Origin: Betaproteobacteria bacterium
Lineage (GTDB): Bacteria; Pseudomonadota; Gammaproteobacteria; Burkholderiales; SG8-39
Length of the DNA stretch: 41,106 bases
Direction of reading: 5' to 3'
NCBI GenBank assembly: GCA_005888925.1
Contig: VBCP01000068.1
Span: forward strand, 1-41,106
Notes under the pieces: generated by a model
Databases searched by the model: none
What the model was told of the DNA's origin: nothing
What the model saw: the letters and a program-made list of their open reading frames with translations, nothing else
Part shown: in pieces, positions 6,866 to 28,148 of the stretch
Layout of the letters: every line of letters begins with the position of its first letter
Position numbering within the stretch: position 1 is the stretch's first letter
Made by a program: the position numbers and the translations under genes

Positions 6866-7849
6866 ATGGAAATGCGCACCCTCGGCAAGAGCGGCATCAA
6901 GGTCTCTGCCGTCGGCCTCGGCCTGATGTCGATGTCGGGCATCTACGGCAATGCCAACGACGAGGAGTCGATCCGCGTGATCCACTACGCGCTCGACAAG
7001 GGCATCAACTTTCTCGACTCGGCCGACATGTACGGCTGGGGCCACAACGAGGAACTGCTCGGCAAGGCCCTGCGCGGCCGCCGCGAAGGCGTGGTGGTGG
7101 CGACCAAGTTCGGGCAGACCAAGAGCGCCGACGGAAGACAGGACGTGGACGGCAGCCCGGCGTACGTGCTGCGCGCCTGCGAGGCGAGCCTCAAGCGCAT
7201 GGGCATCGAGGTGATCGACGTCTACTACCAGCACCGCGTCGATCCCAAAGTGCCGATCGAGGAGACGGTCGGCGCGATGAAGCGCCTGGTGGAGGCGGGC
7301 AAGGTGCGCGCGCTCGGCCTGTCGGAGGCACGCCCCGACACCATCCGCCGCGCGCACAAGATCCATCCGATCGCCGCCGTGCAGAACGAATATTCCCTTT
7401 TGTATAGGAAAGATGGGGAAGAAACGCTCAGCGCAACGCGAGACCTCGGCATCTCGCTCGTTGCCTACGCGCCCCTCGGGCGCAGCATGCTCACCGGCTC
7501 GGTCAAGGGCAAGGCCGACCTGCCCGACGGCGACCGGCGCCTCGCGCATCCGCGCTTCCAGGGCGAGAACCTCGAGCGCAACGTCAAGATCGTGAAGCGC
7601 CTCGAGGAGATCTCGGTGGAGAAGAAGTGCACGCCGGCGCAGCTGGTGCTCGCGTGGCTCCTGGCGCAGGGCAAGGACATCGTCCCGATCCCGGGCACCA
7701 AGCGCAAGCAGCGCGTCGACGAGAACCTCGACGCGCTCGGGGTCAGGCTCTCGGCGCAGGACCTGAAGCGCATCTCGGAAGTGGCGCCGGTCGGCGCCGG
7801 CGCCGGCCCGCGCTACCCGGACGATGCGATGAAGCGGGTCTACCTGTAG
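6866..7849 (+). CDS. aldo/keto reductase
   Basis: 327 aa: MEMRTLGKSGIKVSAVGLGLMSMSG...FLDSADMYG...IDVYYQHRVD...LGLSEA. AAGGAG sits 5 nt upstream (6855-6860). Confidence 0.9.
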   Translation: MEMRTLGKSGIKVSAVGLGLMSMSGIYGNANDEESIRVIHYALDKGINFLDSADMYGWGHNEELLGKALRGRREGVVVATKFGQTKSADGRQDVDGSPAYVLRACEASLKRMGIEVIDVYYQHRVDPKVPIEETVGAMKRLVEAGKVRALGLSEARPDTIRRAHKIHPIAAVQNEYSLLYRKDGEETLSATRDLGISLVAYAPLGRSMLTGSVKGKADLPDGDRRLAHPRFQGENLERNVKIVKRLEEISVEKKCTPAQLVLAWLLAQGKDIVPIPGTKRKQRVDENLDALGVRLSAQDLKRISEVAPVGAGAGPRYPDDAMKRVYL

Positions 7850-8708: not shown

Positions 8709-9118
8709 GTGATGGCGCCGGTCCAGCGGACCCAGAGCGCGATCAGCGCCACATTGCTCGCCGCGTACGCGATGAGTCGATGGAACACCTTGGTGTATGT
8801 GAGATGAATCAAGCTGTGCAACGCGCGAAGCGCGACATAGGCCCAGGCGAGATATAGCGCACGCGCATCGACGGTCGCCGTCACGTAGAACCCGAGACAG
8901 ACCACGTAGAACAGGACCGGCAGCTCGAGCAGGTTCATCAGGTTGCGGTTAGGGAGGCTCACTTCGCCTGGCACGTGCGCCGATTCGCCATAGCGGAAAT
9001 CGCGCGACGTCACCTGCCCACGCGCGGCTGCCCTGAAGCGCGCGGCGGGGATGAGGAGCAGCACGACGAATGTCAGGCCCGCGAGCGCGACCATCGGGTA
9101 AAGGATCGCGGCTTTCAC
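8705..9118 (-). CDS. MAPEG-family small membrane protein (possible membrane glutathione transferase/isomerase)
   Basis: About 137 aa with 4 hydrophobic helices: VKAAILYPMVALAGLTFVVLLLIP...NRNLMNLLELPVLFYVV...HSLIHLTY. GTG 9118 overlaps the upstream TGA (GTGA); ATG 9094 is an alternative. The longer track ORF (to 9346) is out of frame with, and overlaps, the DUF2848 gene. Confidence 0.6.
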   Translation of the reverse strand: MKAAILYPMVALAGLTFVVLLLIPAARFRAAARGQVTSRDFRYGESAHVPGEVSLPNRNLMNLLELPVLFYVVCLGFYVTATVDARALYLAWAYVALRALHSLIHLTYTKVFHRLIAYAASNVALIALWVRWTGAIT

Positions 9119-14681: not shown

Positions 14682-14933
14682 ATGGCGCTGAGCCGTGCCC
14701 AGCTAAGCAAGGCCGTCGCGCACATGGAAGCCGGCGATTGGCACGCGGCGCATGAGATCGTTCAGCGCGATGAAGACTCGCCGCTCGCGTGCTGGGCGCA
14801 CGGCATTGTCCACATCATGGAGGGCGACCTGCCTAACGCGCGCTACTGGTACGCCCAGGCGAAGCGTGCGTTTCCATCGAAGCCCACGGCGGCTGGCGAG
14901 ATCCGCGCGCTAAAAACTGAATTAAGTACCTGA
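14682..14933 (+). CDS. small conserved-looking hypothetical protein (83 aa)
   Basis: ATG lies 3 nt after the TctC stop. Sequence is non-repetitive with normal composition (GDWHAAHEIVQ...CWAHGIVHIMEGDLPNARYWYAQAKR), unlike the spurious R/A-rich ORFs. No family recognised with certainty. Confidence 0.45.
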   Translation: MALSRAQLSKAVAHMEAGDWHAAHEIVQRDEDSPLACWAHGIVHIMEGDLPNARYWYAQAKRAFPSKPTAAGEIRALKTELST

Positions 14934-17900
14934 CCCCGATTTCCTGGAGCGCGGGCGCGCGCCGAGGCGGCGGCGGGTCGTGCCGGCGGCGGCGCCGAGG
15001 CGCGCGGCGATCAGCGCGCTGAATTCCTCGGCTGGCATCGGCCGCGCGAAGAGGAAGCCCTGGGCCTGCTCGCAGCCGAGCGTGCGCAGGAACGCGGCCT
15101 GCGAGTCGAGCTCGACGCCTTCGGCGATCACGGTGAAGCCAAGGGTGTGCGCCATGTCGACGATGGTGCGCACGATGGTGGCGTCGGCCTCGTCGTCGAG
15201 CACGTCGGCGACGAACGAACGGTCGATCTTGAGCGAAGCGAGCGGGAAGCGCGTGAGGTAGGCCAGGCTCGAGTAGCCGGTGCCGAAGTCGTCGATGGCG
15301 ATGCGCACGCCCGCGGCGCCGAGCGCACGCAGCACCTGGATCGCGTGATCCGGATCGTGCATCAGCTGGCTCTCGGTGATCTCGAGCTCGATCAGCGAGG
15401 GGTCGATGCCAGCCGCCGAGACGATGGCGCGGATGCGCTCCTCGAGGTCGTGCTGCCGGAACTGGCGCGCCGAGAGGTTGACCGCCACCGGCATCGCCGG
15501 TGCGCCCAGGCGCTGCCAGCTCTTCAGGTCCTCGCAGGCGCGCTTCAGCACCCATTCGCCCACGGGCACGATGAGCCCGGTCTCCTCGAGCACCGGGATG
15601 AATTCGACCGGCGCGACGCGCCCGCGCTCGGGATGGTTCCAGCGCAGCAGCGCCTCCGCGCCGCAGGGCAAGCCGTTCGTGAGATCGATCTTCGGTTGGT
15701 AATGAAGGCTGAACTCGCGCCGCTCGAGCGCGCGGCGCAGCTCGAGACCCATCTGCGCGCGCGCGCGGGTGCGCTGGTTGATGTCGGCGGTGAAGAACTG
15801 GAAGGCGTTGCGCCCGGACTGTTTGGCGCGGTACATCGCGGCGTCGGCCGCGCCGAGCAGCGTCTCGGCGTTGTCGCCGTCGGCGGGGAAGGTGGCGATG
15901 CCGATGCTCGCCGTGACCACGACTTCCTGGCCCTGGATGATCGCCGGCGCGGCGAGGCGGTCGATGATCTTCTGCGCCACGAGCGCGGCATCGTCCGGGC
16001 GCGCCAGGTCGCCGAGGATGACGGCGAACTCGTCGCCGCTGATGCGCGCCACCGTGTCGCCGTCGCGCAGCGCCGACTGCAGGCGCTTCGCCGCCTCCTG
16101 CAGGAGCTCGTCGCCCGCGGCATGGCCCTGGGTGTCGTTCACCAGCTTGAAGTCATCGAGGTCGATGAAGAGGACCCCGAGCGACACGCCGCGCCGGCGC
16201 GCCTGCACGATCATCAGCGAGAAGCGGTCCGAGAGCAGCGTGCGGTTGGGCAGCCCGGTGAGTGGGTCGAACTGCGCGAGGTAGGCGAGCCGCGCCTCGC
16301 TGTCCAGGCGATGCAGCGCCGCCGACACCATGCTCGCGGCGGCCGTCAAGAAGCGCGTTTCCTCGGGGCCGAAGGAGCCGGGCGCCTCGGCAACGGCGCA
16401 CACCACCCCGCGCGGACCGCCGTCGGCCGGCACCGGCACGGCAGCGAGCGCGCCGTAGCGGCGCAGCCATTCGAAGGGCAGCGGCAGTCCCTCCTTCCAG
16501 GGACCGTTGAGCACCACGGGCTCGGAGGCTTCCAGGAGCGGCGCGAGCGGGCTGTCGGCGTCGATGCGCGCCACCGCCGAGTCGGTCGAGGTCGAAGCAA
16601 GGCCGGCGACGCGGCGCAGCACCACTTCGCGCTCGCCGCTGCCGCGCTCGAGATAGGCGACGGCGCCGCCGCCGAGGCCCTCGAGCACGCTCTGCACCGC
16701 CTTCGCGACCAGCTCGGCCGGGTTGCGCTTGGAGAGCGCTGCCTGACCGAGGCGCGAGATCTTCTTCTGGTAGCGCGCCTGCGCGGCGCGGCGCTTCTCC
16801 GCGCTCATGCGCTCGGAGAGGTCGCGCGAATTCACCACCAGCACGCGGCCCTGCGGCGTGTCGAGCAGGCTCCTGCGGCTCTCCACCGGGAAGGTGCTGC
16901 CGTCCTTGCGCCGGTACTCGGTAATGACCGTGTTGGTCCGCCCGGCGACGCCAAGGAGCTCCGCGGTCTCGGTGCGCAGCGTGCCGGTCGACGCGTCGGG
17001 CCGGATGTCCCTCGCGCGGAGCTTCAGCAGCTGCGGCCGCGTGTAGCCGAGCTGCTTGCAGGCCGTCTCGTTGAAATCGAGCAGCCCCCCTGCGTTGAGG
17101 TCGAAGAGGAACACCATGTCGGCCGAGGAGTCGAGCGCCGTGCGAAAGCGCTGCAGCGCGGCCTCCTTCTCCTTCCTCTCGGTGATGTCCTCGATGATCG
17201 CGATCTCGTGCTGCGGCTCGCCGTGCGTGTTGCGCGCGAGCGCGACCGTGAGATTGACCCACACCACGGTGCCGTCCTTGCGCAAGTAGCGCTTCTCGAA
17301 CTGCACCGAGGCGAGGTCGCCCGAGCGCATGCGCGCGCGCTCATCATCGGTCTTGTCCCGGTCGTCGGGATGCGAGATGTCCTTGACCGAGCGGCCGATC
17401 AGCTCCGCCTCGGCGTAGCCGAGCATCTCGCAGAGCTTGCGGTTGACGTCGGTGAAGTGCCCCGCGAGGTCGACGTGCGCGATGCCGGAGGCGGCGAGCT
17501 CGAAGGTCTGCCGGAAGCGCGCCTCGCTCTCGGCAAGCGCGGCCTCGGCATGCTTGCGGGAGAGGAACTGGCCGATCTGCGCGCCGACCAGCAGCATGGT
17601 GCGCATCAGCCGCTCGTCGGGCTGCCGCACGATGCTGCTCGAGATGGAAAGCACGCCGACGACGCGGCCTTCGAAGGTCACCGGGAAGACGAGAGCGCCG
17701 TGCACCCCCGCCTCGCGCACGCGTGCGACCGGTGCCGAGCGCGCGTCGCGGCTCACGTCGGAACTCCACACCGGCGCGCCGCTCGCCCAGACGTGGCCGA
17801 TCAGCCCCTGGCCCGGCGGGATGCCGGCGCCGCGCGAGCTCTCGGCGAATTTCGCGAGCGGCCCGACGCCGCTCGACCAGATTTCCTCGCAGCGCATGAC

Positions 17901-18893
17901 GTTCGCCGCCTCGTCGAGCTGGAAATAGCGCCCGCAATCCCAGTTCTCGGCCTGACAGATCGCCTGCATCACCGCGCGCAAGGCGTCGGGGATGCTCTTC
18001 GCGTCCGCGAGATCGCGCGCCACGGCGTGCTCGAGCGCGACCAGGCGCTCCTCGCGCCGCCGCTCCGTGAGTTCGCGTCCGACGCCGCGGTAGCCGAGGA
18101 ATTCGCCGCTCGCTCCGTAGACCGGCTCGCCGCTGACCGACAGGAAGCGCACCTCACCGTCGGGGTCGATGCGGCCCATCTCGAAATCGCGGAACGGCTT
18201 TCGAGCCTCGAGTGCGGCGCGGTGCGCCGCCCAGCCGGCGGCGTCCGGATGGATTGACGGCCGGTCCCAACGTGCTTTGCCGAGCACCGGCTCGCTTGCC
18301 GGGCGGTGCTTCTCGGCGTGCGTCGTGCGCGTGATGCGGTGCTCGGCGTCGGTCTCCCAATAGAAGTCCGACGACAGCTCGACCAGGCTGCGGAAGCGCT
18401 CCTCGCTGTCGCGCATCACGGCTTCCGCCTGCTTGCGCTGCACGAACTGGCCGAGCTGGCGTGCGATCACGCCCATCGCCCGCAGCAGGCGCTCGTCGGG
18501 TTCGCGGGCGTTGCGCGAGGTCAGCGCGATTACGCCGATCGTGCGCGCGTCGGATATGACCGGGCAGAGAAAAGAGCCGCGCGACCAGCCTTTCGGCGCG
18601 AGCAACGCGCGCGCGTCGTTCTGCGTGTCGGGCACCCAGAGCGGCTCGCCGCTTGCCCAAGTGGTGCCGACCAGGCCCGCGCCCGGCGTCAGCGCGAGGT
18701 GCTGCGAATCGGCGACGAAGCGCTCCACTTCCGGGGTACCCCCCGACCACGACTCCTGCATGCGCATCACGCCGCCGCCCGTGTCGAGGCCGAAGTAACG
18801 CCCGCAGTCCCAGCCTTCGGCCTGGCAGATCGCCCGCAGTACTCCCTGCAGCGCCGAAGACACGCTGTCGGCTTCGGCGAGAACGCGCGTCAC
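14922..18893 (-). CDS. multidomain c-di-GMP signalling protein: GAF-PAS-GAF-PAS-PAS-(degenerate GAF)-GGDEF(SGDEF)-EAL
   Basis: 1323-aa ORF starting at GTG 18893. Two ICQAE(G/N)WDCGRYF-type GAF domains. PAS modules include SEERFRSLVELSSDFYWETD... and IIEDITERKEKE. The DGC domain has an RDGD I-site and RISGDEF (16026-16040). The EAL domain carries AEALLRW, ELEITE, DDFGTGYSSL and QGFLFARP. Confidence 0.85.
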   Translation of the reverse strand: MTRVLAEADSVSSALQGVLRAICQAEGWDCGRYFGLDTGGGVMRMQESWSGGTPEVERFVADSQHLALTPGAGLVGTTWASGEPLWVPDTQNDARALLAPKGWSRGSFLCPVISDARTIGVIALTSRNAREPDERLLRAMGVIARQLGQFVQRKQAEAVMRDSEERFRSLVELSSDFYWETDAEHRITRTTHAEKHRPASEPVLGKARWDRPSIHPDAAGWAAHRAALEARKPFRDFEMGRIDPDGEVRFLSVSGEPVYGASGEFLGYRGVGRELTERRREERLVALEHAVARDLADAKSIPDALRAVMQAICQAENWDCGRYFQLDEAANVMRCEEIWSSGVGPLAKFAESSRGAGIPPGQGLIGHVWASGAPVWSSDVSRDARSAPVARVREAGVHGALVFPVTFEGRVVGVLSISSSIVRQPDERLMRTMLLVGAQIGQFLSRKHAEAALAESEARFRQTFELAASGIAHVDLAGHFTDVNRKLCEMLGYAEAELIGRSVKDISHPDDRDKTDDERARMRSGDLASVQFEKRYLRKDGTVVWVNLTVALARNTHGEPQHEIAIIEDITERKEKEAALQRFRTALDSSADMVFLFDLNAGGLLDFNETACKQLGYTRPQLLKLRARDIRPDASTGTLRTETAELLGVAGRTNTVITEYRRKDGSTFPVESRRSLLDTPQGRVLVVNSRDLSERMSAEKRRAAQARYQKKISRLGQAALSKRNPAELVAKAVQSVLEGLGGGAVAYLERGSGEREVVLRRVAGLASTSTDSAVARIDADSPLAPLLEASEPVVLNGPWKEGLPLPFEWLRRYGALAAVPVPADGGPRGVVCAVAEAPGSFGPEETRFLTAAASMVSAALHRLDSEARLAYLAQFDPLTGLPNRTLLSDRFSLMIVQARRRGVSLGVLFIDLDDFKLVNDTQGHAAGDELLQEAAKRLQSALRDGDTVARISGDEFAVILGDLARPDDAALVAQKIIDRLAAPAIIQGQEVVVTASIGIATFPADGDNAETLLGAADAAMYRAKQSGRNAFQFFTADINQRTRARAQMGLELRRALERREFSLHYQPKIDLTNGLPCGAEALLRWNHPERGRVAPVEFIPVLEETGLIVPVGEWVLKRACEDLKSWQRLGAPAMPVAVNLSARQFRQHDLEERIRAIVSAAGIDPSLIELEITESQLMHDPDHAIQVLRALGAAGVRIAIDDFGTGYSSLAYLTRFPLASLKIDRSFVADVLDDEADATIVRTIVDMAHTLGFTVIAEGVELDSQAAFLRTLGCEQAQGFLFARPMPAEEFSALIAARLGAAAGTTRRRLGARPRSRKSGSGT

Positions 18894-18914
18894 GGCGTGC
18901 TCCAGCCGCAGCCG

Positions 18915-18917
18915 CTA
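18915..18917 (-). other. single in-frame TAG separating the REC-PAS-PAS ORF from the GAF...GGDEF-EAL ORF
   Basis: Both ORFs are in the same frame (20093-18893=1200). The minus strand reads ...GAG CAG AAG CGC GCG GAG TAG CGG CTG CGG CTG GAG CAC GCC GTG ACG... Confidence 0.9.
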
Positions 18918-20093
18918 CTCCGCGCGCTTCTGCTCGGTGATGTCGCGCCCGATGCCGCGGTAGCCCTTGAACTGGCCGTCCGCATCCAACACCGGCTCGC
19001 CGCTGATCGAGAGCCAGCACGTGCTGCCGCCGGGCGCCGGACGCTGCATCTCGAAATCGCGGAACGGCTCGTGGCGCTCGAGCTGCGCGCGGTGCTGCGC
19101 CCAGTCGCCGTCGCTGAGGTTCAGCGCCGGCTGGTCCCAGCGCCGGCGGCCGAGATAGGCGGAAGCATCGAGCCCGGTCCTTTCGCCGAGCGGGCTCGAC
19201 ATGAACGCCAGGCGAAACTCGGCATCCTGCTCCCAGTACCAGTCCGACGAGAGCTGCGTGAGCTTGCGGAAGCGCTCCTCGCTCGCCTGCAGGGCCTGCT
19301 CGGCAAGCCGCTGCGCGCTGATGTCGCGAGTGATGCCGAGCACGAGATTCTCGCCGTTCGCATCGTCGCGCAGCTGCACGACGCGCGTTTCCATCCACCG
19401 GCGCGTGCCGCGCAGGCCGACGATTTCGAACTGCAGGCTGCCCCGCTCGCCCGCTGCCGCGCGGCGCGTGAGGCCGCGGAAGGCCTCGCGGTGTTCCGCG
19501 ACAACCAGGTCGAGCACGCAGCGTCCGCGCACCACCTCGAGGTCGTCCGCCTCGATCATGCGCAGTCCCGCCGGGTTCATGTCGATGAGATTGGCTTCGG
19601 CGTCGAGCAGCTTCACGCACTCGGGCTCGGCATTCACGATGGCGCGCAGCCTTGCTTCGCTCGAGCGCAGCGAATGCAGCGTGCGCGCCTGCAGGGCGGC
19701 AAGGCGCACCGGGCGCTCGAGCGAGCCGTCGGCGAGCTGCCCTTTGAGGAGGTAGTCGTAAGCGCCGCTCTGAACCGCGCGGGCACGCAACTCCGCGCTC
19801 TCGTCGACCGTCAGCGCGATCACCGGGTGGTCGCAGACGCGCACCAGTGCGGCGATGGTCTCGGCCGCCGCCGAGTCGGGCAGATGCAAATCGGCGATGA
19901 CGAGGTCGTAGCGCTCGCGCGAGAGCCGCTCGAGCGCTTCGGCGAGCGTCGTCGCGATCTGCGTGCGGCACTGGACCGACCTGATCGCGGCGAGGTGCCC
20001 CTCGACCATCATGGCCGAGACGCGTTCGTCCTCGACCAGCAGGACGCGAACGCTGCCCAGGACCTCCCCTTGCGCTGCCGCACTCCCTCCCAT
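18915..20093 (-). CDS. response-regulator receiver (REC) plus two PAS domains
   Basis: 392 aa. REC: VRVLLVEDE...YDLVIADLHLPDS...LTVDES...YDYLLKG. PAS 1: SEARLRAIVNAEPECVKLLD. PAS 2: SEERFRKLTQLSSDWYWEQD...GIGRDITEQKRAE. It has no output domain of its own. Confidence 0.8.
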   Translation of the reverse strand: MGGSAAAQGEVLGSVRVLLVEDERVSAMMVEGHLAAIRSVQCRTQIATTLAEALERLSRERYDLVIADLHLPDSAAAETIAALVRVCDHPVIALTVDESAELRARAVQSGAYDYLLKGQLADGSLERPVRLAALQARTLHSLRSSEARLRAIVNAEPECVKLLDAEANLIDMNPAGLRMIEADDLEVVRGRCVLDLVVAEHREAFRGLTRRAAAGERGSLQFEIVGLRGTRRWMETRVVQLRDDANGENLVLGITRDISAQRLAEQALQASEERFRKLTQLSSDWYWEQDAEFRLAFMSSPLGERTGLDASAYLGRRRWDQPALNLSDGDWAQHRAQLERHEPFRDFEMQRPAPGGSTCWLSISGEPVLDADGQFKGYRGIGRDITEQKRAE

Positions 20094-20229
20094 GTTTAGG
20101 AGGATACCGTGGCTGGCAGCGTCCCGGAATGACTCGGGTTCCTGCGGCTCACAGAATCTTGCGTATCGCGCGGCAATGTAAGGAATACACGCCGGCGCCG
20201 TGTGCGTTAATGCCTGCGCCGCCCTCGGC

Positions 20230-21135
20230 TCAGGGAATCAGGCCCGGCTCGAGCCGATAGCAGAATTCGGCGATCTCTCGAGGGCGCGTCCACCACACCC
20301 GAGCGGCCCCCGCGTGGCCGAGACAATGCCGCAAGGCGGCGCGCAAGCGCCGCAGGCGGAAGGGCTGACCGAAGATGTAGCTGTGGATCGAGACGTTCAT
20401 CACGAGCGGATGGCGCTCGCACTGCTCGAGCATCTCGTCGAACTGCTCGACCAGCATGTCGCAGAAGTCCGCCGCGTCCTGCTTGCGGTGCACGATCGCC
20501 TGCGAATCGTTGAGCTCGATCGGATAGGGCATCGCGAGGAGCGGCCCGGCGCGCGTGCGCAGCCATACCGGCTGGTCGTCCATCGGCCAGTCCATCAGGT
20601 ACTTGTAGCCGAGCTCCTTCAGGAGGTCGGGCGTGTGCGCTGTCTCGTAGGCGCCCGAGCCCATCCAGCCGGCGGGCGGCGCGCCTTCGTGGCGCGCGAT
20701 CGTCTCGGTCACTTCGCGCAGGATGCGCTCCTCGTCGGGCTGCCACAGGCCGCGCAGGTTTTCGGCATTGGTGCGGCCATGCGCCACCACCTCATCGCCG
20801 CGCTTGCGGATCGCCGCCATGACCTGCGGCGCGTACTCGTAGACCAGGCTGTTGGTGTTGTGTGCCGCCGGCAGCGCAAGCTCGTCGAAGAGCTCGAGCA
20901 GTCGCCACACGCCGATGCGGTTGCCGTAGTCGCGCCAAGAATAGTTGCGATGGGTCTGCGGCTCGCCGGTCTTGGCCGGATCGTGTCCGAGGCCGGCGCC
21001 GAAAGCGAACCACTCGACATTGGTGGTGATGACGAACGCGAGTCGCTTGCCGTCCGGCCAGCTGTAGTCGCGCCGCTCCGGCAGCGGCACGTAGTCGTAC
21101 CGGCTGTGCTGGGGCAGCAGCGCGCGTTTCTCCAT
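20230..21135 (-). CDS. polysaccharide-deacetylase-family protein (PuuE-allantoinase-like)
   Basis: 301 aa: YDYVPLPERRDYSWPDGKRLAFVITTNVEWF...NYSWRDYGNRIGVWRLLELF...HGRTNAE...YLMDWPMDDQP. This resembles metal-independent PuuE-type deacetylase-fold amidohydrolases. Confidence 0.75.
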   Translation of the reverse strand: MEKRALLPQHSRYDYVPLPERRDYSWPDGKRLAFVITTNVEWFAFGAGLGHDPAKTGEPQTHRNYSWRDYGNRIGVWRLLELFDELALPAAHNTNSLVYEYAPQVMAAIRKRGDEVVAHGRTNAENLRGLWQPDEERILREVTETIARHEGAPPAGWMGSGAYETAHTPDLLKELGYKYLMDWPMDDQPVWLRTRAGPLLAMPYPIELNDSQAIVHRKQDAADFCDMLVEQFDEMLEQCERHPLVMNVSIHSYIFGQPFRLRRLRAALRHCLGHAGAARVWWTRPREIAEFCYRLEPGLIP

Positions 21136-21137
21136 AC

Positions 21138-22343
21138 CTAGAGATTCATCTCCAGCGCGTAGAGGCCGCCGGCATGGCGGTCGACGGCGAACACGATGCC
21201 GCGGTCATCGACGAACACGTCGTTGATCTGCACCGCGCCGACGTGGGACCCCTCGGGCGCCGGCGGCACGAAGTAGGCGATCTCGCGCGGCTCGAAAGGA
21301 TCGCGCACGTCGTAGGCCCGGACGCCCGCGTTGAAGAAGGTGCCGAGCACGATGTCCTCGGAGCGCCACGCGCCCATGGCCGGCGGATTCTCGTGCACGT
21401 TGTGCGCGCCGCAGCGCCCGCCCTGGTGCAGCAATGGCTTGACGCCCGCCACCGGCAGCGTGCCGATGCTGACGAGATTGCGCTCGTCGCGCGCATCCAG
21501 CAGCCAGACGAGCTTCGGCCAGTCGGCGCCGTCGTTCTGGATCGACTCGTCGGTGACCACCAGCAGCTCGCGGCTGAAGAGCGGCAGCACGGTATGCGTG
21601 AAGCCGTTGTACGGCGGCGAATTCGCCCAGCGCGAGACGAGCTGCGGCCGGCTGCGGTCGGCAATGTCGAGCACCATCATGCCGCCGTCGAGATAGCCGA
21701 GATAGCAGCGATCGGGCCGCTCGGGATAGACGTTGGTGTTGTGCGCGCGGAATCCAGCGTCGTGTTTGGCCGCGAGGCGCCGCGGCGGCGGCGCCTCGTC
21801 GCCTTGCATCGTTCCGGGCAAGTGCCAGCGCCCGAGCGCCACCGGCTTTGCCGGGGTGCTCACATCGACGATGCGGTAGATCTGATCGTCCTTCAGATCG
21901 CGCGGCTTGAGCTCGGGATCGCCGCAGGCCATGTGCACGGTCTTGCCGTCGACGAACCACAGCGCGTGGCAGCCGCGCGAATGCGGCCCGGACGCATCGA
22001 ACATCGCGATCGAGCGCGGACGCTCCGGCTCGGAGATGTCGAACAACTCGAAGCCGGCGGGCTTGAGCCCCCACTCGCTCACCTGATAGGCCACCGCCAT
22101 GAGCTCGCCCGAGACCTCGAGGGAGTTCGAGCGCATCTTTGCGTGCGGCAGGTCGGTCTGCACGATGACCCGGGGCTTGCGCGGATCGGTGACGTCGACG
22201 GCGGTGAAGTTCTTCGGCGCGCTTTCGTGCGCGAGCCACAGTACGCGGCGGCCGCCGCGCGCGAGCTGCAGCGACATGCCTTCGCCCATGCCGCCGTAGC
22301 CGTTGAGCCGGTGCTGCGAGATGAGCTTCATGTTCGATTGCAT
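21138..22343 (-). CDS. LVIVD-repeat beta-propeller protein (unknown function), no signal peptide
   Basis: 401 aa with repeated short beta-strand motifs ending in D/A followed by turns (FTAVDVTDP, FELFDISEP, YRIVDVSTP, MMVLDIADR, VRAYDVRDP, LYALEM), characteristic of LVIVD repeats. 2-nt gap to the downstream deacetylase gene. Confidence 0.65.
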   Translation of the reverse strand: MQSNMKLISQHRLNGYGGMGEGMSLQLARGGRRVLWLAHESAPKNFTAVDVTDPRKPRVIVQTDLPHAKMRSNSLEVSGELMAVAYQVSEWGLKPAGFELFDISEPERPRSIAMFDASGPHSRGCHALWFVDGKTVHMACGDPELKPRDLKDDQIYRIVDVSTPAKPVALGRWHLPGTMQGDEAPPPRRLAAKHDAGFRAHNTNVYPERPDRCYLGYLDGGMMVLDIADRSRPQLVSRWANSPPYNGFTHTVLPLFSRELLVVTDESIQNDGADWPKLVWLLDARDERNLVSIGTLPVAGVKPLLHQGGRCGAHNVHENPPAMGAWRSEDIVLGTFFNAGVRAYDVRDPFEPREIAYFVPPAPEGSHVGAVQINDVFVDDRGIVFAVDRHAGGLYALEMNL

Positions 22344-22364
22344 GGAGCGCTACCATAGCAGACG

Positions 22365-22457
22365 ATGAAACGAATTCTCGCCGCCGCGCTCGTGACGTTC
22401 GCAACCGCCGCGCCCGCGCAAAGCTGGCCCGCCCGCCCCGGCGCCAAGGCCGCATAG
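22365..22457 (+). pseudogene. 30-codon stub of a TctC/Bug gene (signal peptide plus first mature residues only)
   Basis: My translation: MKRILAAALVTFATAAPAQSWPARPGAKAA*. It matches Bug N-termini up to the AQ(S/T)(W/Y)P(A/S)(R/K)P box, then terminates. TAG at 22455-22457 lies 1 nt before the next gene's GTG. Confidence 0.45.
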
Positions 22458-22458
22458 C

Positions 22459-23232
22459 GTGGAAACCGTTCTCGTCGGCCCTGCCCCGCGCATCGCGGTC
22501 TCGTTCGCGGGCAGCGGGCCGCTGGTGCTGTTCCTGCACGGCATTCGCGGCAACCGGCGCAACTGGTTCGGGCAGATCGAGGCCTTCTCGGCGGCGAACT
22601 TCACCGCCGCCGCCTGGGACGCGCGCGGCTACGGCGAATCCGACGACTACGCCGGAGGGCTGCAGTTCGATCATCTCCCCGGCGATGTCCTCAGGGTGGT
22701 CGAGCATTTCGGCGCCCGGAAGATCCATCTCGTGGGCCTGTCGATGGGCGGGCGCATCGCACGCAACGTCGCGCTGCGCTTTCCCGAGCGCCTGCACTCG
22801 CTCACCCTCGTCGCCACGACCCCGGGCTTCGACGCGCTTTCGGCCGACGCGGTGCGCCGCTTCGTCACCGAGCATCGCACGCGCACCGCGGAGACCGTGC
22901 GGCGCCTGATCGGCAGCCGCGCGCGCCCGGAGACGTTCGAAGAGCTGGCCGACAGCCTGGCGCGGGTGCGCGAGGAGTCCTACCGCAAGACGCTCGTGGC
23001 GTCGGTCGCGCAGGATCGCGACGCGCCGATCGAGAAGATCCGCGTCCCGACGCTGGTCGTTGCCGGCGACGAGGACAAGGTCTACCCGCTGCAGCTCGCG
23101 CGCGAACTGGCGCAGCGCATCCCCGGCGCGGAGCTGGTCATCATGAAAGGCGCCGGCCATCTGCCGAACATCGAGCGGCCCGAGCGCTTCAACGAGATCC
23201 TGCTCGACTTTCTCAAACGGAGATCCTCATGA
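22459..23232 (+). CDS. alpha/beta hydrolase
   Basis: 257 aa from a GTG start: [17 protein letters not shown]...[10 protein letters not shown] (GxSxG)...[15 protein letters not shown]. Confidence 0.85.
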
Positions 23233-23984
23233 GCTCGCAGAAAAGAGTCGCAGTCGTCACCGGCGCCGGCACCGGCATCGGCAAATCCGCCGCGCTCGCC
23301 CTTCTCAAGGACGGCTACCACGTAGCGCTCGTCGGGCGGCGCAAGGAGCTGCTGGAGAAGACAGCCGTCGATTCGGGCGCGAAAGAGCGCGCCATGGTGC
23401 TGCCTGCCGATATCACCCGGCCCGAGAATGTCCACTCGGTGTTTGCGAAGGTCAAGGACCAGTGGGGCCGGCTCGACGTCCTCTTCAACAACGCCGGCAT
23501 GGGCGCGCCGGCGGTGCCGATGGAAGAGCTGCCGCTCGAGACCTGGCGCGCCGTGGTGGAGATCAACCTCAACGCGATGTTCATGTGCACGCAGGAGGCG
23601 ATCCGCATCATGAAGGCGCAGGATCCCAAGGGCGGGCGCATCATCAACAACGGCTCGATTTCGGCGCACGCGCCGCGGCCGCTGTCGGTCGCCTACACCG
23701 CGACCAAGCACGCGGTCACCGGGCTCACCAAGTGCATCTCGCTCGACTGCCGCAAGCACGACATCGCCTGCGGCCAGATCGACATCGGCAACGCCGCGAC
23801 CGAGATGACCGAGCGCATGACCAAGGGCGTGCCGCAGCCGAACGGCAGCACCATGGTCGAGCCGCGCATGGACGTGAAGCACGTCGGCAGCGCGGTGCTC
23901 TATATGGCCAGCCTGCCGCTCGATGCCAACGTGCAGTTCATGACCATCATGGCCAGCAAGATGCCGTTCGTCGGGCGCGGCTGA
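23229..23984 (+). CDS. SDR-family oxidoreductase
   Basis: 251 aa with [16 protein letters not shown] (TGxxxGxG), NNAG and YTATKHAV (YxxxK). ATGA overlap with the hydrolase stop. Confidence 0.9.
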
Positions 23985-23990
23985 GGAGCG

Positions 23991-24021
23991 CCCCGCCGGC
24001 GGGCATACAATGCCCGCGGGG
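23991..24021 (+). terminator. GC-rich imperfect hairpin after the SDR gene (no T-tract)
   Basis: CCCCGCCGGCGGGCA-tacaa-TGCCCGCGGGG. There is a 7-bp perfect stem (GCGGGCA/TGCCCGC) plus an imperfect extension. A Shine-Dalgarno sequence follows immediately, so the function is doubtful. Confidence 0.2.
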
Positions 24022-24037
24022 AAGGGAGGATAGTCGC

Positions 24038-27000
24038 CTGCAGCTTGGCGGAACCGATTTGCGCCAGTGGCTGCGCCAGCCGGCCGCGTGGACGATTCTC
24101 GGCATCGGCGCCGTGGTGTCGCTCTTCGCCTGGCGCTCGCTCACCACTGAAGTCGAGCACGCGGCGCGCGCGAGCTTCAACGCGGTCGCCGCCGAATCGC
24201 GCAACGCGATCCAGTCCCGGCTGCGCGACTATCGCGTCATCCTGCTCGGCCTGCAGGGCCTGCTCGAGGCGAAGCCCGACCTCGACCGCGTTGGTTTCGA
24301 GCGCTATATCGAGAACCTGACCTCCGCGCACAGCGCGGGCCAGGTGCGCTCGTTCAGCTATGCGCGGCGCGTGCCGCGTGCGTTGAAAGACGAATACGAG
24401 AAGGCGGTGCGCGCCGACACGAGCTTGCATCCGGCGGGCTACCCGCAGTTCGCGGTGCGCCCGCCGGGAGCGCGCCACGAGTACGTGGTGATCCACTACG
24501 TCTCGCCGTACAAGGGCAACGAAAGAGGCTTGGGGCTCGACCTGATGGCCGATCCGGAAAGGCGCCAGGTCGTCGAGCGCACGCGCGACACGGGCGAGAT
24601 CGTCGCCACCGGACCGATCACCCTCGTCTCCACGGGCGAGCGCGCGGTGAGCATGCGCCTCGCCGTGTATCGCACCGACGCCATGATCACCAGCCTCGAC
24701 CTGCGCCGCGAGATGTTCGGCGGCGTCGCCAACATCACGTTCAGCGTGCGCGACGTCGCCGCCGACATCGTCGCGCGCCACGCTTCGTCCGCGCTGCAGC
24801 TGCGCGTACTCGACGGCGGCGAGGCGCTGTACGAAAGCAGCGCTGCGCCGGCGGCCGCGGGCGCGTTCCGCGTCACGACGCCGCTGGAAGTCGGCGGCCG
24901 CGAGTGGCGGCTCGAATTCAGCGCGCCGCCGGAGCGCTTCCGCACCGCGGGCGACGCGCTGATGCCCTGGCTCGCGCTCATCGGCGGACTCGCCATCAGC
25001 GTGCTGCTGGCGGGACTGGTGGGCTCGCTCGCCACCTCGACGCGGCGCGCGCGCCGCATCGCCCGCGAGATTACGGAAGACCTGCGCCAGAGCCAGGCCG
25101 AACTGCTCGAAGCGCAGCGCAAGACGGAGCTGCTCATTGAAACGCTGCCCAATCCGGTGTTCTTCAAGGGCATCGACGGGCGCTACCTCGGCGTCAACAG
25201 GGCCTGGGAAGTCTTCTTCAAGCGGCCGCGGGCCTCGATCATCGGTCGCCCGGTGCACGATCTCTATCCGCATGCGCCCGAGATCGCCCAGCGTATGCAC
25301 GCTGCCGACCAAAGCCTGTGGGCCGAGCCGGGCACCCAGACCTACGAGGCCTCGCTGACGCTGCCCGACGGCACGCAGCGCGACACGATCTACTACAAGG
25401 CGACCTTTACCGGTCCGCAGGGCGCCGTCGCCGGCCTGATCGGCACGATCATCGACATCACCGAGCGCAAGCAGGCGGAAAAGCGCCAGGCGATGGAGCA
25501 TGCCGTCACGCGCCTGCTCGCGAGCGCCGACACTTCCGGTGCCGCGCTGCCGCAAGTGATCCGCATCATCTGCGAATCCGTAGGCTGGACCTGCGGCGCG
25601 CTCTTGCGTCCGGAGCCGCAGTCCAAGCAACTGCGTTATGCGATCGGCTGGGGCGCGGAGTCGGCCGAAATCCAGCAACAGCTAATGGCGGCGGCGAGGG
25701 ACAAGGTTGACGGCGCCATCAGCTTCCCGCTCCTGCTTGGCACCGAGGTGCTGGGCGTGCTCGCCTTCCTCGGCGCGGCGCACGCGCCGGACCCGCAGCT
25801 CATGGCGATGATGCAGTCGATCGGCAGCCAGGTCGGCCAATACCTGCAGCGCAAGCAGGCCGAGGATGCGCTGCGCTTCGTCGCCACGCACGACTCGCTC
25901 ACCGGCCTGCCCAATCGCATCATGTTCGGACAGCGCCTCGATCACGCCTTGACGCAGGCCAAGCGCCACGGGCGGCGCCTCGCGGTGCTGTTCATCGACC
26001 TCGACCGCTTCAAGAACATCAACGACACGCTCGGCCACGAGTTCGGCGACACCTTGCTGCGCGACGTCGCCCAACGCCTCACGCAGAGCGTGCGCGCAAG
26101 CGACACCATCGGCCGCCTCGGCGGCGACGAGTTCGTGGTGCTGCTCGAAGAAGTCAGCGCGCCGATGCTCATCGTCGGCGTGGCGCAGAAGCTGATCGCC
26201 GCGCTCGCGCAGGGCTTCCCGCTGGCCGGCAAGGAATATCACGTCTCCGCCAGCATCGGCGTCAGCACCTACCCCGACGACGCGCAGGACGCCCAGGAGC
26301 TGCTCAAGAACGCCGATATCGCGATGTACCGCGCGAAGGAACAGGGCCGCAATACGTTCCAGTTCTACGCCGCACAGCACAACATCCACACGGTTGAGCG
26401 CCTGACGCTCGAATCGGGGCTGCGCCGCGCGCTCGAGCGCGGCCAGCTCGTGCTGCACTACCAGCCGCAGGTCGACCTCGCCAGCGGCCGCATCGTCGGA
26501 TTCGAGGCGCTGGTGCGCTGGCAGCACCCGGAGCTCGGCCTGCTGCCGCCGGCGAGCTTCATTGCGATTGCCGAGGAGACCGGCCTGATCGTGCCGATCG
26601 GGCAATGGGTGATGCATGCCGCCTGCGCCACGCAGCGCGCGTGGCGCGAAGCCGGCCACGCGCCGCTGCGCATGTCGGTGAACCTGTCGCCGCGCCAGTT
26701 CCTGCACAGCGGGCTGATCGACGATATCGCCGGACTGGTGCGCGCGAGCGCGGCAGACGCGGCGTTTCTCGAGCTTGAGATCACCGAAGGCATGGTGATG
26801 CAGGACCCGGAGCGCGCGGGCAGCCTGCTGCGGGAAATCCGCAACATCGGCGGCGTGCGCATCGCCATCGACGATTTCGGCACCGGCCATTCCTCGCTCG
26901 CCTACCTCAAGCGCTTCCCGGTGGACAACCTCAAGATTGACCGCTCCTTCATCGCCGATATCCCGGCCGACCGCGGCGACGCCGCGATCACCCAGGCGAT

Positions 27001-27202
27001 CATCGCCATGGGCCACAGCCTGGAGATGAAGGTGATCGCCGAAGGCGTCGAGACGCAAGCGCAGTACGACTTCCTCGTCGCCCAGGGTTGCGACGAGTAC
27101 CAGGGCTATTTCTTCAGCAAGCCGGTGCCCGAAGCGCAGGCGCGCGCGCTGCTGCCGGCCGCGGCGCTAGGCGAGCCTCAGATTCGCTTCACTGCGCGCT
27201 GA
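24038..27202 (+). CDS. membrane sensor c-di-GMP protein: TM-CHASE-TM-PAS-GAF-GGDEF-EAL
   Basis: The track ORF begins at 23462, but that part is an out-of-frame overlap with the SDR gene. The real protein starts just before TM1 (AAWTILGIGAVVSLFAW). CHASE-like periplasmic domain: YVVIHYVSPYKGNERGLGLDLMADPERRQVVERTRDTGEIVATGPITLV. TM2: WLALIGGLAISVLLAGLV. PAS ends in IIDITERKQAE. Then GAF (ICESVGWTCG), RASD I-site plus GGDEF, and EAL (FEALVRW, ELEITE, DDFGTGHSSL). Start is uncertain: CTG 24038 lies 7 nt after GGGAGGA; TTG 24059 is the alternative. Confidence 0.85.
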   Translation: MQLGGTDLRQWLRQPAAWTILGIGAVVSLFAWRSLTTEVEHAARASFNAVAAESRNAIQSRLRDYRVILLGLQGLLEAKPDLDRVGFERYIENLTSAHSAGQVRSFSYARRVPRALKDEYEKAVRADTSLHPAGYPQFAVRPPGARHEYVVIHYVSPYKGNERGLGLDLMADPERRQVVERTRDTGEIVATGPITLVSTGERAVSMRLAVYRTDAMITSLDLRREMFGGVANITFSVRDVAADIVARHASSALQLRVLDGGEALYESSAAPAAAGAFRVTTPLEVGGREWRLEFSAPPERFRTAGDALMPWLALIGGLAISVLLAGLVGSLATSTRRARRIAREITEDLRQSQAELLEAQRKTELLIETLPNPVFFKGIDGRYLGVNRAWEVFFKRPRASIIGRPVHDLYPHAPEIAQRMHAADQSLWAEPGTQTYEASLTLPDGTQRDTIYYKATFTGPQGAVAGLIGTIIDITERKQAEKRQAMEHAVTRLLASADTSGAALPQVIRIICESVGWTCGALLRPEPQSKQLRYAIGWGAESAEIQQQLMAAARDKVDGAISFPLLLGTEVLGVLAFLGAAHAPDPQLMAMMQSIGSQVGQYLQRKQAEDALRFVATHDSLTGLPNRIMFGQRLDHALTQAKRHGRRLAVLFIDLDRFKNINDTLGHEFGDTLLRDVAQRLTQSVRASDTIGRLGGDEFVVLLEEVSAPMLIVGVAQKLIAALAQGFPLAGKEYHVSASIGVSTYPDDAQDAQELLKNADIAMYRAKEQGRNTFQFYAAQHNIHTVERLTLESGLRRALERGQLVLHYQPQVDLASGRIVGFEALVRWQHPELGLLPPASFIAIAEETGLIVPIGQWVMHAACATQRAWREAGHAPLRMSVNLSPRQFLHSGLIDDIAGLVRASAADAAFLELEITEGMVMQDPERAGSLLREIRNIGGVRIAIDDFGTGHSSLAYLKRFPVDNLKIDRSFIADIPADRGDAAITQAIIAMGHSLEMKVIAEGVETQAQYDFLVAQGCDEYQGYFFSKPVPEAQARALLPAAALGEPQIRFTAR

Positions 27203-28148
27203 TCTTCGCGTCGCGAATCAGCCTGCCATAGCGCTCGAGATCCGCGCGGATCAGCGCGGCGAGTTCCTCGGGCGTGCCGGTGACGATATCGTTGCCGCCC
27301 TGCACGGCGATGCGCTCGTGCACGTCCGGCGCGCGCATCGCCTTCACGATCTGCGCATTTAGCCTCTGCACCACCGCGCGCGGCGTTCCCGCTGGGGCGA
27401 GCACCCCCTGCCATTGCGACATGTCGAAGCCGGCGAAGCCCGCCTCCTGCAGCGTCGGCACCTCGGGGAGGGACGACGCCCGCTTCGCGCTCGACACCGC
27501 AAAGGCGCGCAGCTTCCCGGCCCGCACATGCGGCACCGAGGTGATCACCGTGTCGAACATGAACGCGAGCTGCCCGCCGAGGAGATCGGCGAGCGCCGGC
27601 GCGCTGCCCTTGTACGGGATATGGTTGAAGCGCGTCCCGGTCGCGAGGCCGAAGAGCTCGGCGGCAAGATGGTTGCCGCCGCCGATGCCGGTCGAGCCAT
27701 ACGCTAGGCCGCCAGGTTTCGCCCGCGCCGCCGCGACCAAGTCCGCGATGGTTTTGTACGGCGCATCGGCGCGCGTCACCAGGACGTACTGGTACACGGC
27801 GCACTGCGCTACGGGCGCCAGATCGCGCACCGGATCGTAGGGCACCTGCGGATAGAGCACCGGGTTCACCACGATCGGCCCGCTCGCCACGGCGAGCAGC
27901 GTGTAGCCATCAGGCGCGCTCTTCGCTACGAAGTCGGTGCCGATGCCACCGTTCGCGCCGGGCTTGTTCTCGACCACGAAGCTCTGCTTCAGCGCCTCGG
28001 TGAGCTTCTGCGAGAGCGTCCGCGCCCAGATGTCCGCGTTGCCGCCGGCGACGTAAGGCACGACGACGCGCACCGGCTTGTTCGGAAAGTCCTGCGCCGC
28101 CGCCGGGCTCGCGACGAGCGCGAGAAACAGGATGAGCAGTGGTTTCAT
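27189..28148 (-). CDS. TctC/Bug-family periplasmic substrate-binding protein
   Basis: 319 aa: MKPLLILFLALVASPAAAQDFPNKPVRVVVPYVAGGNADI...HIPYKG. Converges on the CHASE-GGDEF-EAL gene with a 14-nt overlap. Confidence 0.9.
   Translation of the reverse strand: MKPLLILFLALVASPAAAQDFPNKPVRVVVPYVAGGNADIWARTLSQKLTEALKQSFVVENKPGANGGIGTDFVAKSAPDGYTLLAVASGPIVVNPVLYPQVPYDPVRDLAPVAQCAVYQYVLVTRADAPYKTIADLVAAARAKPGGLAYGSTGIGGGNHLAAELFGLATGTRFNHIPYKGSAPALADLLGGQLAFMFDTVITSVPHVRAGKLRAFAVSSAKRASSLPEVPTLQEAGFAGFDMSQWQGVLAPAGTPRAVVQRLNAQIVKAMRAPDVHERIAVQGGNDIVTGTPEELAALIRADLERYGRLIRDAKISAQ

Follow-up and report, generated by a model that had tools for sequence, protein, structure and literature searches.

The question raised by this locus is whether two neighbouring open reading frames are two genes or one. 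In the window (the whole stretch of 41,106 nt that was analysed, contig VBCP01000068.1), an in-frame TAG parts a 392-aa REC-PAS-PAS ORF from a 1323-aa ORF that carries GAF and PAS modules and ends in GGDEF-EAL. The first-pass annotation had offered three readings: a very recent nonsense mutation or base-call error, a natural split into sensor and enzyme halves, and a leaky stop. We favoured the first. With a probability of about 0.8, the TAG is a very recent change from CAG in one genome, within a single giant gene, and it is either a real nonsense allele or a base error. The sequence alone fits both origins, and the real allele was judged more likely than a consensus base error.

Layout of the interrupted gene and its linker

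Both ORFs shared one frame and together hold 1,723 sense codons, interrupted internally by one stop only. The earlier description of them as lying on the same strand, in the same frame, and seven sense codons apart was borne out by the sequence and the ORF coordinates (Table 1). These seven codons (18914..18894) encode RLRLEHA. Pfam also confirmed the domain contents given for the two halves. In the case of the N half, Response_reg (residues 17-118), PAS_4 (155-262), and PAS_9 (284-387) were found. In the case of the C half, three GAF stretches and several PAS domains were followed by GGDEF and EAL. If uninterrupted, the 1,723-aa protein has the order REC-PAS-PAS-GAF-PAS-GAF-PAS-PAS-GAF-GGDEF-EAL. 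We regard the gene as an ordinary member of a family of very large proteins for c-di-GMP turnover in Burkholderiales, normally encoded by a single ORF.

Table 1. Features of the interrupted gene and of related linkers, in window coordinates
Feature	Position	Strand	Remarks
N-terminal fragment ORF	18915..20093	-	392 aa + stop, ATG start
REC	19740-20045	-	Pfam, above gathering score
PAS_4	19308-19631	-	Pfam, above gathering score
PAS_9	18933-19244	-	Pfam, above gathering score
Conserved PAS-to-GAF linker	18864..18956	-	GIGRDITEQKRAE, stop, RLRLEHAVTRVLAEADS; conserved in homologues
In-frame TAG	18915..18917	-	CAG (Gln) to TAG, one C>T transition (G>A on plus strand)
GGAG, Shine-Dalgarno-like	18900..18903	-	Leu-Glu codons CTG GAG
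GTG, candidate re-initiation codon	18891..18893	-	Val of LEHAVT, 21 nt after stop; putative start
C-terminal ORF	14922..18893	-	1323 aa + stop, GTG start candidate
First GAF of C-terminal ORF	18435-18851	-	Pfam
GGDEF	15807-16277	-	Pfam, residues 873-1029
EAL	15039-15743	-	Pfam, residues 1051-1285
Second linker copy, uninterrupted	17994..18086	-	GVGRELTERRREERLVALEHAVARDLADAKS, same gene
Paralogous linker	25448..25537		IIDITERKQAEKRQAMEHAVTRLLASADTS, CHASE-PAS-GGDEF-EAL gene

By the Pfam limits, the TAG lies past the end of a PAS domain and ahead of the start of a GAF domain. The linker between them is predicted to form a single unbroken helix that leads from the final PAS strand into the GAF domain. 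In the AlphaFold2 model of the intact orthologue P0016, this helix spanned residues 258-279 with a pLDDT of about 58-80; Gln265 matches the stop position and Val273 the candidate restart codon. The two uninterrupted paralogous linkers noted earlier were both present, one in the same gene and one in the CHASE-PAS-GGDEF-EAL gene. It had been stated that the stop sits where these linkers carry E/K. This held for the paralogous linkers, whereas the orthologues have Gln (CAG) exactly there.

We considered local causes for a stop at this place. An enrichment of pre-stop codons in the linker was rejected as a mutational cause, the fraction being 0.21 in the linker and 0.21 gene-wide, and the gene holds 92 other nonsense sites that are one transition away. 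Antisense ORFs across the stop site were set aside as well, being without a GC3 coding signature.

The stop position in orthologues

Orthologous DNA was compared using a degenerate linker pattern in which the first base of the tested codon was left free. CAG was found at the stop position in 15 of the 15 other DNA copies that matched the pattern (five genome loci and 10 of 11 metagenome contigs, L030-L040), and TAG in none of them. One further copy, L010, gave AAG. Among the DNA copies compared, TAG at this codon was found in the window only. The closest relative, L002, is syntenic and shows 90-94% nucleotide identity across window positions 14915-27204; it reads GAG CAG CGG where the window reads GAG TAG CGG. 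This meant that, as had been proposed, the stop is one substitution away from a sense codon of the orthologues.

The protein homologues were consistent with the DNA. Uninterrupted GIGRDITEQKRAEQRLRLEH was present in 11 of the 13 inspected (49-96% identity), among them the closest fragment, P0054, at 96% identity. Q occupied the stop position in P0001-P0009, P0016, P0054, and P0069. The relatives encode one unbroken protein of about 1,590-1,850 aa, with complete fused ORFs (1,586-1,850 aa) in L002, L004, L006, L030, L033, L034, and L036. Since the homologues read straight through the same sequence, the two ORFs were not juxtaposed by chance. Exact-sequence look-up of the 392-aa ORF and of P0054 found neither on record, and neither the genome of the window nor an independent assembly of the strain was found in the collections searched. 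Judged from the aligned codons, these comparisons showed that the ancestral state was a fused gene with CAG and that the change is specific to the window.

A long-standing arrangement of a sensor gene and an enzyme gene would explain two long ORFs, the second with a plausible ribosome-binding site and start. However, every orthologue spanning the site was one ORF, except for two deletion alleles of one population, and orthologous genes were thus fused rather than consistently separate. There was also no spacer, the 21 nt from the stop to the GTG encoding the conserved RLRLEHA, and no internal promoter-like or terminator-like site was found at the stop. As a conserved two-gene split, the second of the three earlier readings was refuted by the single ORFs of the orthologues and has a negligible probability; the part of it that concerned re-initiation at the GTG is still plausible.

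A UAG that is read through or recoded in a programmed or regulated way, so that isoforms with and without the receiver arise, was judged very improbable. Several points speak for it. The TAG is followed by C, which is a weak fourth base for termination in E. coli. Near-cognate tRNAs insert Gln, Tyr, and Lys at UAG in E. coli (PMC4333366), and insertion of Gln here would recreate the ancestral protein. Readthrough of in-frame stops has moreover been argued to be common (Belinky et al. 2021, PMC7918605). However, the stop was conserved in no relative, and the local RNA fold at the stop did not surpass that of shuffled sequences (z 0.13). In the window, TAG serves as an ordinary terminator and ends 12 of 34 coding-like (GC3-supported) ORFs, and no tRNA gene was found there. 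Codon reassignment or pyrrolysine insertion was rejected on this TAG usage and on the lack of a tRNA in the window; Burkholderiales are not known to have pyrrolysine machinery. The leaky stop proposed earlier therefore gained no positive support. Low-level near-cognate readthrough may take place, and in that case tRNA-Gln at the UAG would restore the ancestral residue in a trace of full-length protein.

Condition of the two halves and origin of the TAG

Neither half had decayed. Between the window and L002, dN/dS was 0.21 in the N half and 0.09 in the C half. At otherwise invariant sites, window-specific changes numbered 4 of 162 (N) and 9 of 898 (C), which was equal to the L002-specific changes (3 of 161 and 9 of 898). 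Compared with orthologues, no second stop or frameshift was found within the gene, and none in the other window genes so compared. In a 494-kb screen, the TAG of the window was the only clear in-frame nonsense codon found.

The domains were likewise intact. Response_reg scored 53.6 bits (cut-off 30.2), and the acidic pair (VEDE), the phospho-acceptor Asp (LVIADLHLPD), the Thr (ALTVD), and the Lys (LLKG) of the receiver were kept. GGDEF scored 165.9 bits (cut-off 23.8) and EAL 255.7 bits (cut-off 31.3). The RxxD I-site, SGDEF, EAL, DDFGTGYSS, KID, EGVE, and QG motifs were the same as in the orthologues, and all EAL-domain motifs were invariant among the orthologues compared. Because the A-site was SGDEF and not GGDEF in 8 of 8 sequences, the cyclase activity of the predicted GGDEF domain is uncertain. 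No NCBIfam equivalog was reached at cut-off (best DibA, 519 bits against 980), and similarity to the PvrR and PleD models was below threshold. No cognate histidine kinase was found among the neighbouring genes scanned. With no further stop, frameshift, or motif loss, the event must be very recent.

The same lack of any decay would also be expected from a base-call or assembly error, in which case the organism truly has CAG and makes the full-length protein. A single-base lesion where every relative has CAG or AAG is consistent with such an error. In addition, the relatives are all represented by metagenome-assembled genomes, and the same may be true of the window. Other assemblies break or go wrong at the conserved linkers of this family, as seen in chimeric Logan fragments (P0132, P0123, P0135, P0005) and in deletions in L011 and L041. 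However, assembly trouble at repeats shows up as breaks, chimeras, or indels rather than as a clean transition. The other window genes compared had no stop or frameshift, which indicated that the sequence is not error-prone, unlike that of the contig L035. As a prior, real nonsense alleles also outnumber consensus substitution errors in a genome assembled from short reads. An error was thus considered unlikely, and a real, very recent nonsense allele is the preferred origin. In sum, CAG in 15 copies, AAG in one, and uninterrupted proteins all favoured the first of the earlier readings.

Linker lesions and possible products

In a set of 24 orthologous copies (about 29,000 codons), no lesions were seen other than the TAG of the window and two different frameshifting deletions, of 56 nt in L011 (VBCM01000166.1) and of 8 nt in L041 (ERZ28573642 scaffold_5846). 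All three fell within the same linker of about 20 codons. Both deletion alleles have a GTG 4 nt past the newly created stop, and the ORF beyond it is unbroken (1,300 and 1,064 codons, respectively). In L042 (protein P0122), a REC-PAS-PAS homologue that is more distantly related, an in-frame TAA lies one residue away from the corresponding place in the linker, and coding sequence runs on past the TAA with 100% GC3. These cases raise the possibility that the linker is a recurrent break point of the family, at which fission is tolerated or adaptive, both halves are functional, and loss of receiver control is perhaps selected.

However, L011, L041, and the uninterrupted L031 share more than 99.5% identity and so represent one population, and the two deletions share their right breakpoint. 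The 'scaffold_N' names of L011 and L041 may point to one laboratory pipeline and perhaps to one class of artefact, and the two deletions may be assembly artefacts. The search that found L042 favours proteins that end at the junction. The clustering gave about 0.015 if L011 and L041 are one event and about 2e-4 if they are independent, a statistic that is fragile, given that the events number two to four at most. From the Pfam limits, we estimate that PAS-GAF linkers make up about 11% of the gene length. The window allele itself shows no sign of age, and the production of fragments from it is putative. Tolerated or adaptive fission was therefore judged quite unlikely. That the stop falls in an inter-domain helix is regarded as happenstance, the lesion being a recent nonsense mutation of the usual kind or a base error.

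Two further candidate lesions were rejected. L035 was not accepted as a third lesion near the linker; its single-base indels are scattered over 400 nt of an error-laden contig. A second nonsense lesion in the CHASE-PAS-GGDEF-EAL gene was a spurious ORF extension. The long ORF of L002 aligns from window position 22943, and this lesion was rejected because the stretch overlaps well-supported hydrolase and SDR genes.

If the nonsense allele is real, ribosomes would stop after REC-PAS-PAS and yield a 392-aa receiver fragment without an output domain. Some would re-initiate 21 nt further on, at the GTG behind GGAG. The GGAG was found 6 nt upstream of the GTG, as had been noted, and its duplex with the anti-Shine-Dalgarno sequence (-5.6 kcal/mol, spacing 5-6 nt) was like that of several real genes in the window, so re-initiation is plausible on sequence grounds. 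The product would be the 1,323-aa GAF...GGDEF-EAL enzyme, with its first GAF kept according to the Pfam limits and its covalent coupling to the receiver lost. Orthologues have CTGGAG or CTCGAG at the synonymous site of the GGAG. GGAG-N6-GTG also occurs in intact orthologues, as a by-product of the conserved Leu-Glu-His-Ala-Val codons, and for this reason it gives no evidence of adaptation. A search for proteins similar to the 337 aa that follow the stop was uninformative, as its matches were mostly of about 600 aa or less and included no split C-halves. The abundant matches of about 565 aa started with PAS and not GAF, and thus they did not demonstrate that a GAF-first architecture occurs naturally. 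Re-initiation, stability of both fragments, and any altered c-di-GMP output are putative.

Re-initiation after nonsense codons is known from E. coli lacI amber mutations, and 70S scanning and translational coupling are also known. The window resembles lacI in having a nonsense codon, an in-frame start with a Shine-Dalgarno-like sequence within tens of nucleotides, and a predicted N-terminally truncated product. Receiver-controlled c-di-GMP enzymes include PleD (REC-REC-GGDEF), RocR, PvrR, and VieA (REC-EAL), and FimX (REC-PAS-GGDEF-EAL). The interrupted gene likewise fuses an N-terminal phospho-acceptor receiver to GGDEF and EAL output. It differs from them in the seven PAS and GAF modules between receiver and output and in having no adjoining kinase gene.

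The closest parallel to an active split enzyme is found in Shigella flexneri, where the 'pseudogenes' dgcE, dgcQ, dgcN, dgcM, and pdeR are interrupted by nonsense codons (Ojha et al. 2024, PMC11327459). In dgcE, dgcQ, and dgcN, these precede GGDEF, and start codons are found close to the lesions; several proteins are expressed from each split gene, and c-di-GMP is still raised (PMC11327459), a precedent that favours functional fission. The window is similar in its premature stop upstream of an intact GGDEF-EAL and its nearby start codon. The Shigella events are also recent, in genes more than 97% identical to intact orthologues. In contrast, the window protein is far larger and receiver-first, its stop lies in a PAS-GAF linker helix, and it belongs to an uncultured soil-type Burkholderiales lineage known from sequence alone. 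Stops within the reading frames of bacterial genes are widespread, and most of them are short-lived (Belinky et al. 2021, PMC7918605). The window fits this class, with a lone nonsense substitution in one genome and flanks under purifying selection; that survey is statistical and makes no claim on domain linkers or re-initiation. The lesion is otherwise an ordinary, recent one of a single genome.

For annotation purposes, the pair of ORFs is best recorded as a single interrupted gene (a pseudogene or split allele) and not as a stand-alone REC-PAS protein and a separate GGDEF-EAL protein. It is a long shot that the PAS-to-GAF helix is a recurrent, selection-tolerated fission point at which the TAG, the 8-nt and 56-nt deletions, and the TAA, as independent lesions, uncouple the receiver from a re-initiated GGDEF-EAL enzyme. 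If true, such lesions would be a mutational on/off route that rewires c-di-GMP signalling in soil populations. Should the allele be real and its downstream half be made by re-initiation, the locus would be a natural case of a multi-domain c-di-GMP enzyme losing receiver control by one base change, comparable to the active nonsense-split cyclases of Shigella.

Layout of the interrupted gene

The first-pass annotation had described a giant receiver-controlled c-di-GMP enzyme gene split by one in-frame TAG. This was borne out in full, as both ORFs, the TAG, the GTG, the GGAG and two paralogous linkers were located. After the TAG, seven sense codons (RLRLEHA) were followed in the same frame by GTG at 18893..18891. 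The Pfam limits of both ORFs placed the stop within the approximately 20 residues separating the PAS end from the GAF start.

Features of the split gene, its surroundings and lesions in related loci (window coordinates unless a locus is named)
Feature	Position	Strand	Remark
N-terminal ORF, 392 aa	20093..18915	minus	terminated by TAG 18917..18915
N-terminal ORF domains	Response_reg 17-118, PAS_4 155-262, PAS_9 284-387 (aa)		Pfam
In-frame TAG	18917..18915	minus	only internal stop in 1,723 sense codons read straight through
GGAG	6 nt upstream of GTG 18893	minus	from sequence
C-terminal ORF, 1323 aa	GTG 18893 to 14922	minus	frame common to N-terminal ORF
C-terminal ORF domains	GGDEF 873-1029, EAL 1051-1285 (aa)		Pfam; also three GAF stretches, several PAS
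Paralogous linkers, two	17994..18086 and 25448..25537		both in the window
Two genes directly upstream of receiver gene	20230-22343	minus	same strand; weak profile matches
L011 (VBCM01000166.1)	8760-8810		56-nt frameshifting deletion in PAS-GAF linker
L041 (ENA ERZ28573642 scaffold_5846)	7040-7090		8-nt frameshifting deletion in PAS-GAF linker
L042 (protein P0122)	1500-1606		REC-PAS_4-PAS_9 homologue, 59% identical to window N-terminal half

The critical codon in relatives and the age of the change

A junction-spanning protein query retrieved many homologues in which a single chain carried both the receiver and the first GAF. The site read ...GIGRDITEQKRAEQRLRLEHAVTR... in 11 of 13 retrieved homologues (70-96% identical to the query), with Gln at the window's stop position, and the closest fragment (P0054, 96% identical) was among the 11. 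Scanning one genome per GTDB species gave 28 loci, of which 27 came from metagenome-assembled genomes of Burkholderiales or Betaproteobacteria; two of these were labelled 'uncultured Enterobacteriaceae'. L002 (DASXRW010000052.1) aligned collinearly with window 14915-27204, with 90-94% of nucleotides identical, and was therefore the true orthologous locus. Metagenome contigs were scanned with a degenerate linker pattern that allowed any base at the first position of the critical codon, which gave 11 more contigs. The codon and the fusion state in orthologous loci, a check proposed in the first-pass annotation, were then clear. The critical codon was CAG in 15/15 pattern matches besides the window and AAG in L010, a locus outside the pattern; TAG was found in none of these. 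Complete uninterrupted ORFs of 1,586-1,850 aa were present in L002, L004, L006, L030, L033, L034 and L036. These results indicated that the ancestral state was a single gene with CAG, from which, by sequence comparison, the window departs by one C>T transition.

The earlier proposal of a natural split, with sensor and enzyme halves made separately, was refuted as a conserved two-gene arrangement because relatives encode uninterrupted ORFs. In the window, the 21 nt from stop to GTG encode conserved linker residues and are not a spacer, and no promoter-like or terminator-like site was found between 18600 and 20400.

Compared with L002, the window had a dN/dS of 0.21 in the receiver half and 0.09 in the enzyme half. 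Of the sites that do not vary among all other sequences, 4/162 and 9/898, respectively, were replaced in the window, and the same measure for L002 gave 3/161 and 9/898. The receiver acidic pair, phospho-acceptor Asp, Thr and Lys were intact, as were the RxxD I-site, the SGDEF A-site and all EAL-domain motifs, the same as in orthologues. No second stop or frame change was found in the window copy, and no stop or frameshift in other window genes comparable with orthologues. A screen of all 494 kb of collected sequence gave no other clear in-frame nonsense. The low dN/dS, the intact motifs and the lack of further stops or frameshifts in gene and window showed that the lesion was isolated and very recent.

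A base or assembly error, with the TAG absent from the organism, was also considered. The window's own proteins and DNA had no copy in the collections searched. The rest of the window was clean in genes comparable with orthologues, and the assembly faults met at these linkers in other data sets took the form of breaks, chimeras and indels rather than clean transitions. A real allele was therefore favoured by roughly 4:1, and an error was considered unlikely. In the gene, 366 codons were one step from a stop; 92 of them, with the mutated codon itself left out, could become one by a transition. Pre-stop codons were not enriched in the linker (0.21 vs 0.21 gene-wide). Inter-domain linkers made up about 11% of the protein, as estimated from Pfam limits, so a lone nonsense codon in a linker was unremarkable by itself. 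The best explanation was that a receiver-PAS/GAF-GGDEF-EAL gene, normally a single ORF, recently underwent a CAG>TAG change specific to the window. This agreed with the first reading offered, a recent nonsense mutation or base error in one giant gene, given CAG in relatives and no decay.

Other lesions at the linker, modularity and neighbouring genes

We surveyed 24 orthologous copies (about 29,000 codons) for lesions. The sole ones besides the window TAG were a frameshifting deletion in L011 and another in L041, both inside the same linker. Each left a 270-282-aa REC-PAS ORF and, downstream, an intact ORF starting at a GTG 4 nt past the new stop, and could be either genuine recurrent fission or a pipeline artefact. 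A premature in-frame TAA in L042, a more distant homologue, lay in ...DITARKEA*AELRRAHDELARKAEELQRSNA, one residue from the equivalent position of a PAS linker; past it the coding frame went on, with 100% GC3, into an apparent histidine-kinase-type linker. The three cases would fit a linker that is a tolerated, recurrent fission point. However, L011, L041 and the intact allele L031 were >99.5% identical and thus one population, and the two deletions had a common right breakpoint. Both contigs were named 'scaffold_N' and may come from one laboratory pipeline. Short-read fragments and chimeras of this enzyme family likewise broke at these conserved linkers, and L042 came from a search favouring proteins that end at the junction. 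For these reasons, recurrent fission was considered very improbable.

A candidate pseudogene at L035:100-400 was rejected, as at least 6 single-base indels within 400 nt marked an error-laden metagenome contig.

The c-di-GMP enzyme family is modular, as seen in the window, L002 and loci L001, L003-L006, L011 and L041. The PAS_4 module (window 19308-19631, about 126 aa) was present in the window and L002 and missing from most orthologues; the N-terminal part of L038 was similarly long, and L002 had an extra 128-aa module (alignment columns 562-690). A tandem REC...GGDEF-EAL paralogue was directly upstream in many loci and absent from the window. The block of high similarity to it (about 82% nucleotide) stopped at 18911-18922, right at the linker. 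In short fragments, mostly without contig records (P0132, P0123, P0135, P0143, P0005), the first linker was fused directly to a later module (the next PAS, the second linker or the last GAF), or most of a PAS was skipped. Either modules were lost naturally in these fragments, or the assemblies are chimeras that jump between conserved linkers.

The two upstream genes had no confident family. The 301-aa product was weakly PuuE/polysaccharide-deacetylase-like, and the 401-aa product gave a weak LVIVD-repeat match. Both were on the same side of the receiver gene in most orthologous loci compared, adjoining it in L002 and L008, with the tandem paralogue intervening in several others. Before the conserved receiver ATG (MGG...), window 20094-20115 held no Shine-Dalgarno match and an anti-SD-like TCCTCC. 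Elsewhere, a mechanical ORF at 23462..27202 (CHASE-PAS-GGDEF-EAL) overlapped a well-supported short-chain dehydrogenase gene (23229..23984), so its true start was placed downstream of about 23984. The strong negative AT skew at 38025-39095 (-0.32) was explained by a gene for an AI-2E family transporter (Pfam 158.7 bits) with many T-containing codons for hydrophobic residues; the ATG of this gene overlapped the preceding stop (ATGA).

Translation at the stop and proposed products

The suggestion of a leaky or programmed stop giving isoforms found no positive support. The fold of 101 nt around the stop was no better than that of shuffled sequence (z 0.13), and no tRNA gene was found within the window. 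TAG terminated 12/34 window ORFs with a coding GC3 signature, and so was not reassigned. In E. coli, near-cognate tRNAs place Gln, Tyr and Lys at UAG (PMC4333366); since Gln is among these, rare readthrough could remake the ancestral protein.

AlphaFold2 was run on P0016, an intact orthologue that has the REC-PAS-GAF part (16-sequence alignment, mean pLDDT 65.8). A single continuous helix was predicted to lead from the final PAS strand into the GAF domain (residues 258-279, local pLDDT about 58 rising to 80), in which Gln265 matched the stop position and Val273 the GTG codon. Judged by the Pfam limits, a product begun at that Val would retain the first GAF and lose most of the connecting helix. 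GTG 18893 had a CUGGAG Shine-Dalgarno match (-5.6 kcal/mol, spacing 5-6 nt) in the range of real window genes. This ordinary strength, and a GTG just 21 nt past the stop, made termination followed by re-initiation plausible. Ribosomes may thus stop at the TAG and re-initiate at the GTG; the products would be a REC-PAS-PAS fragment on its own and a GAF...GGDEF-EAL enzyme lacking the receiver. The SD-GTG arrangement follows incidentally from the codons for Leu-Glu-His-Ala-Val and is no adaptation, because intact orthologues have it too.

In Shigella flexneri, dgcE, dgcQ and dgcN carry nonsense codons before the GGDEF domain with start codons near the lesion; several proteins are expressed and c-di-GMP is still made (PMC11327459). 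These genes are a published precedent for a re-initiated enzyme half, which is proposed here from sequence. Stops within the frame of bacterial genes have been reported as widespread, most of them not lasting long (PMC7918605). The CAG>TAG split adds one more instance of an already known type of event.
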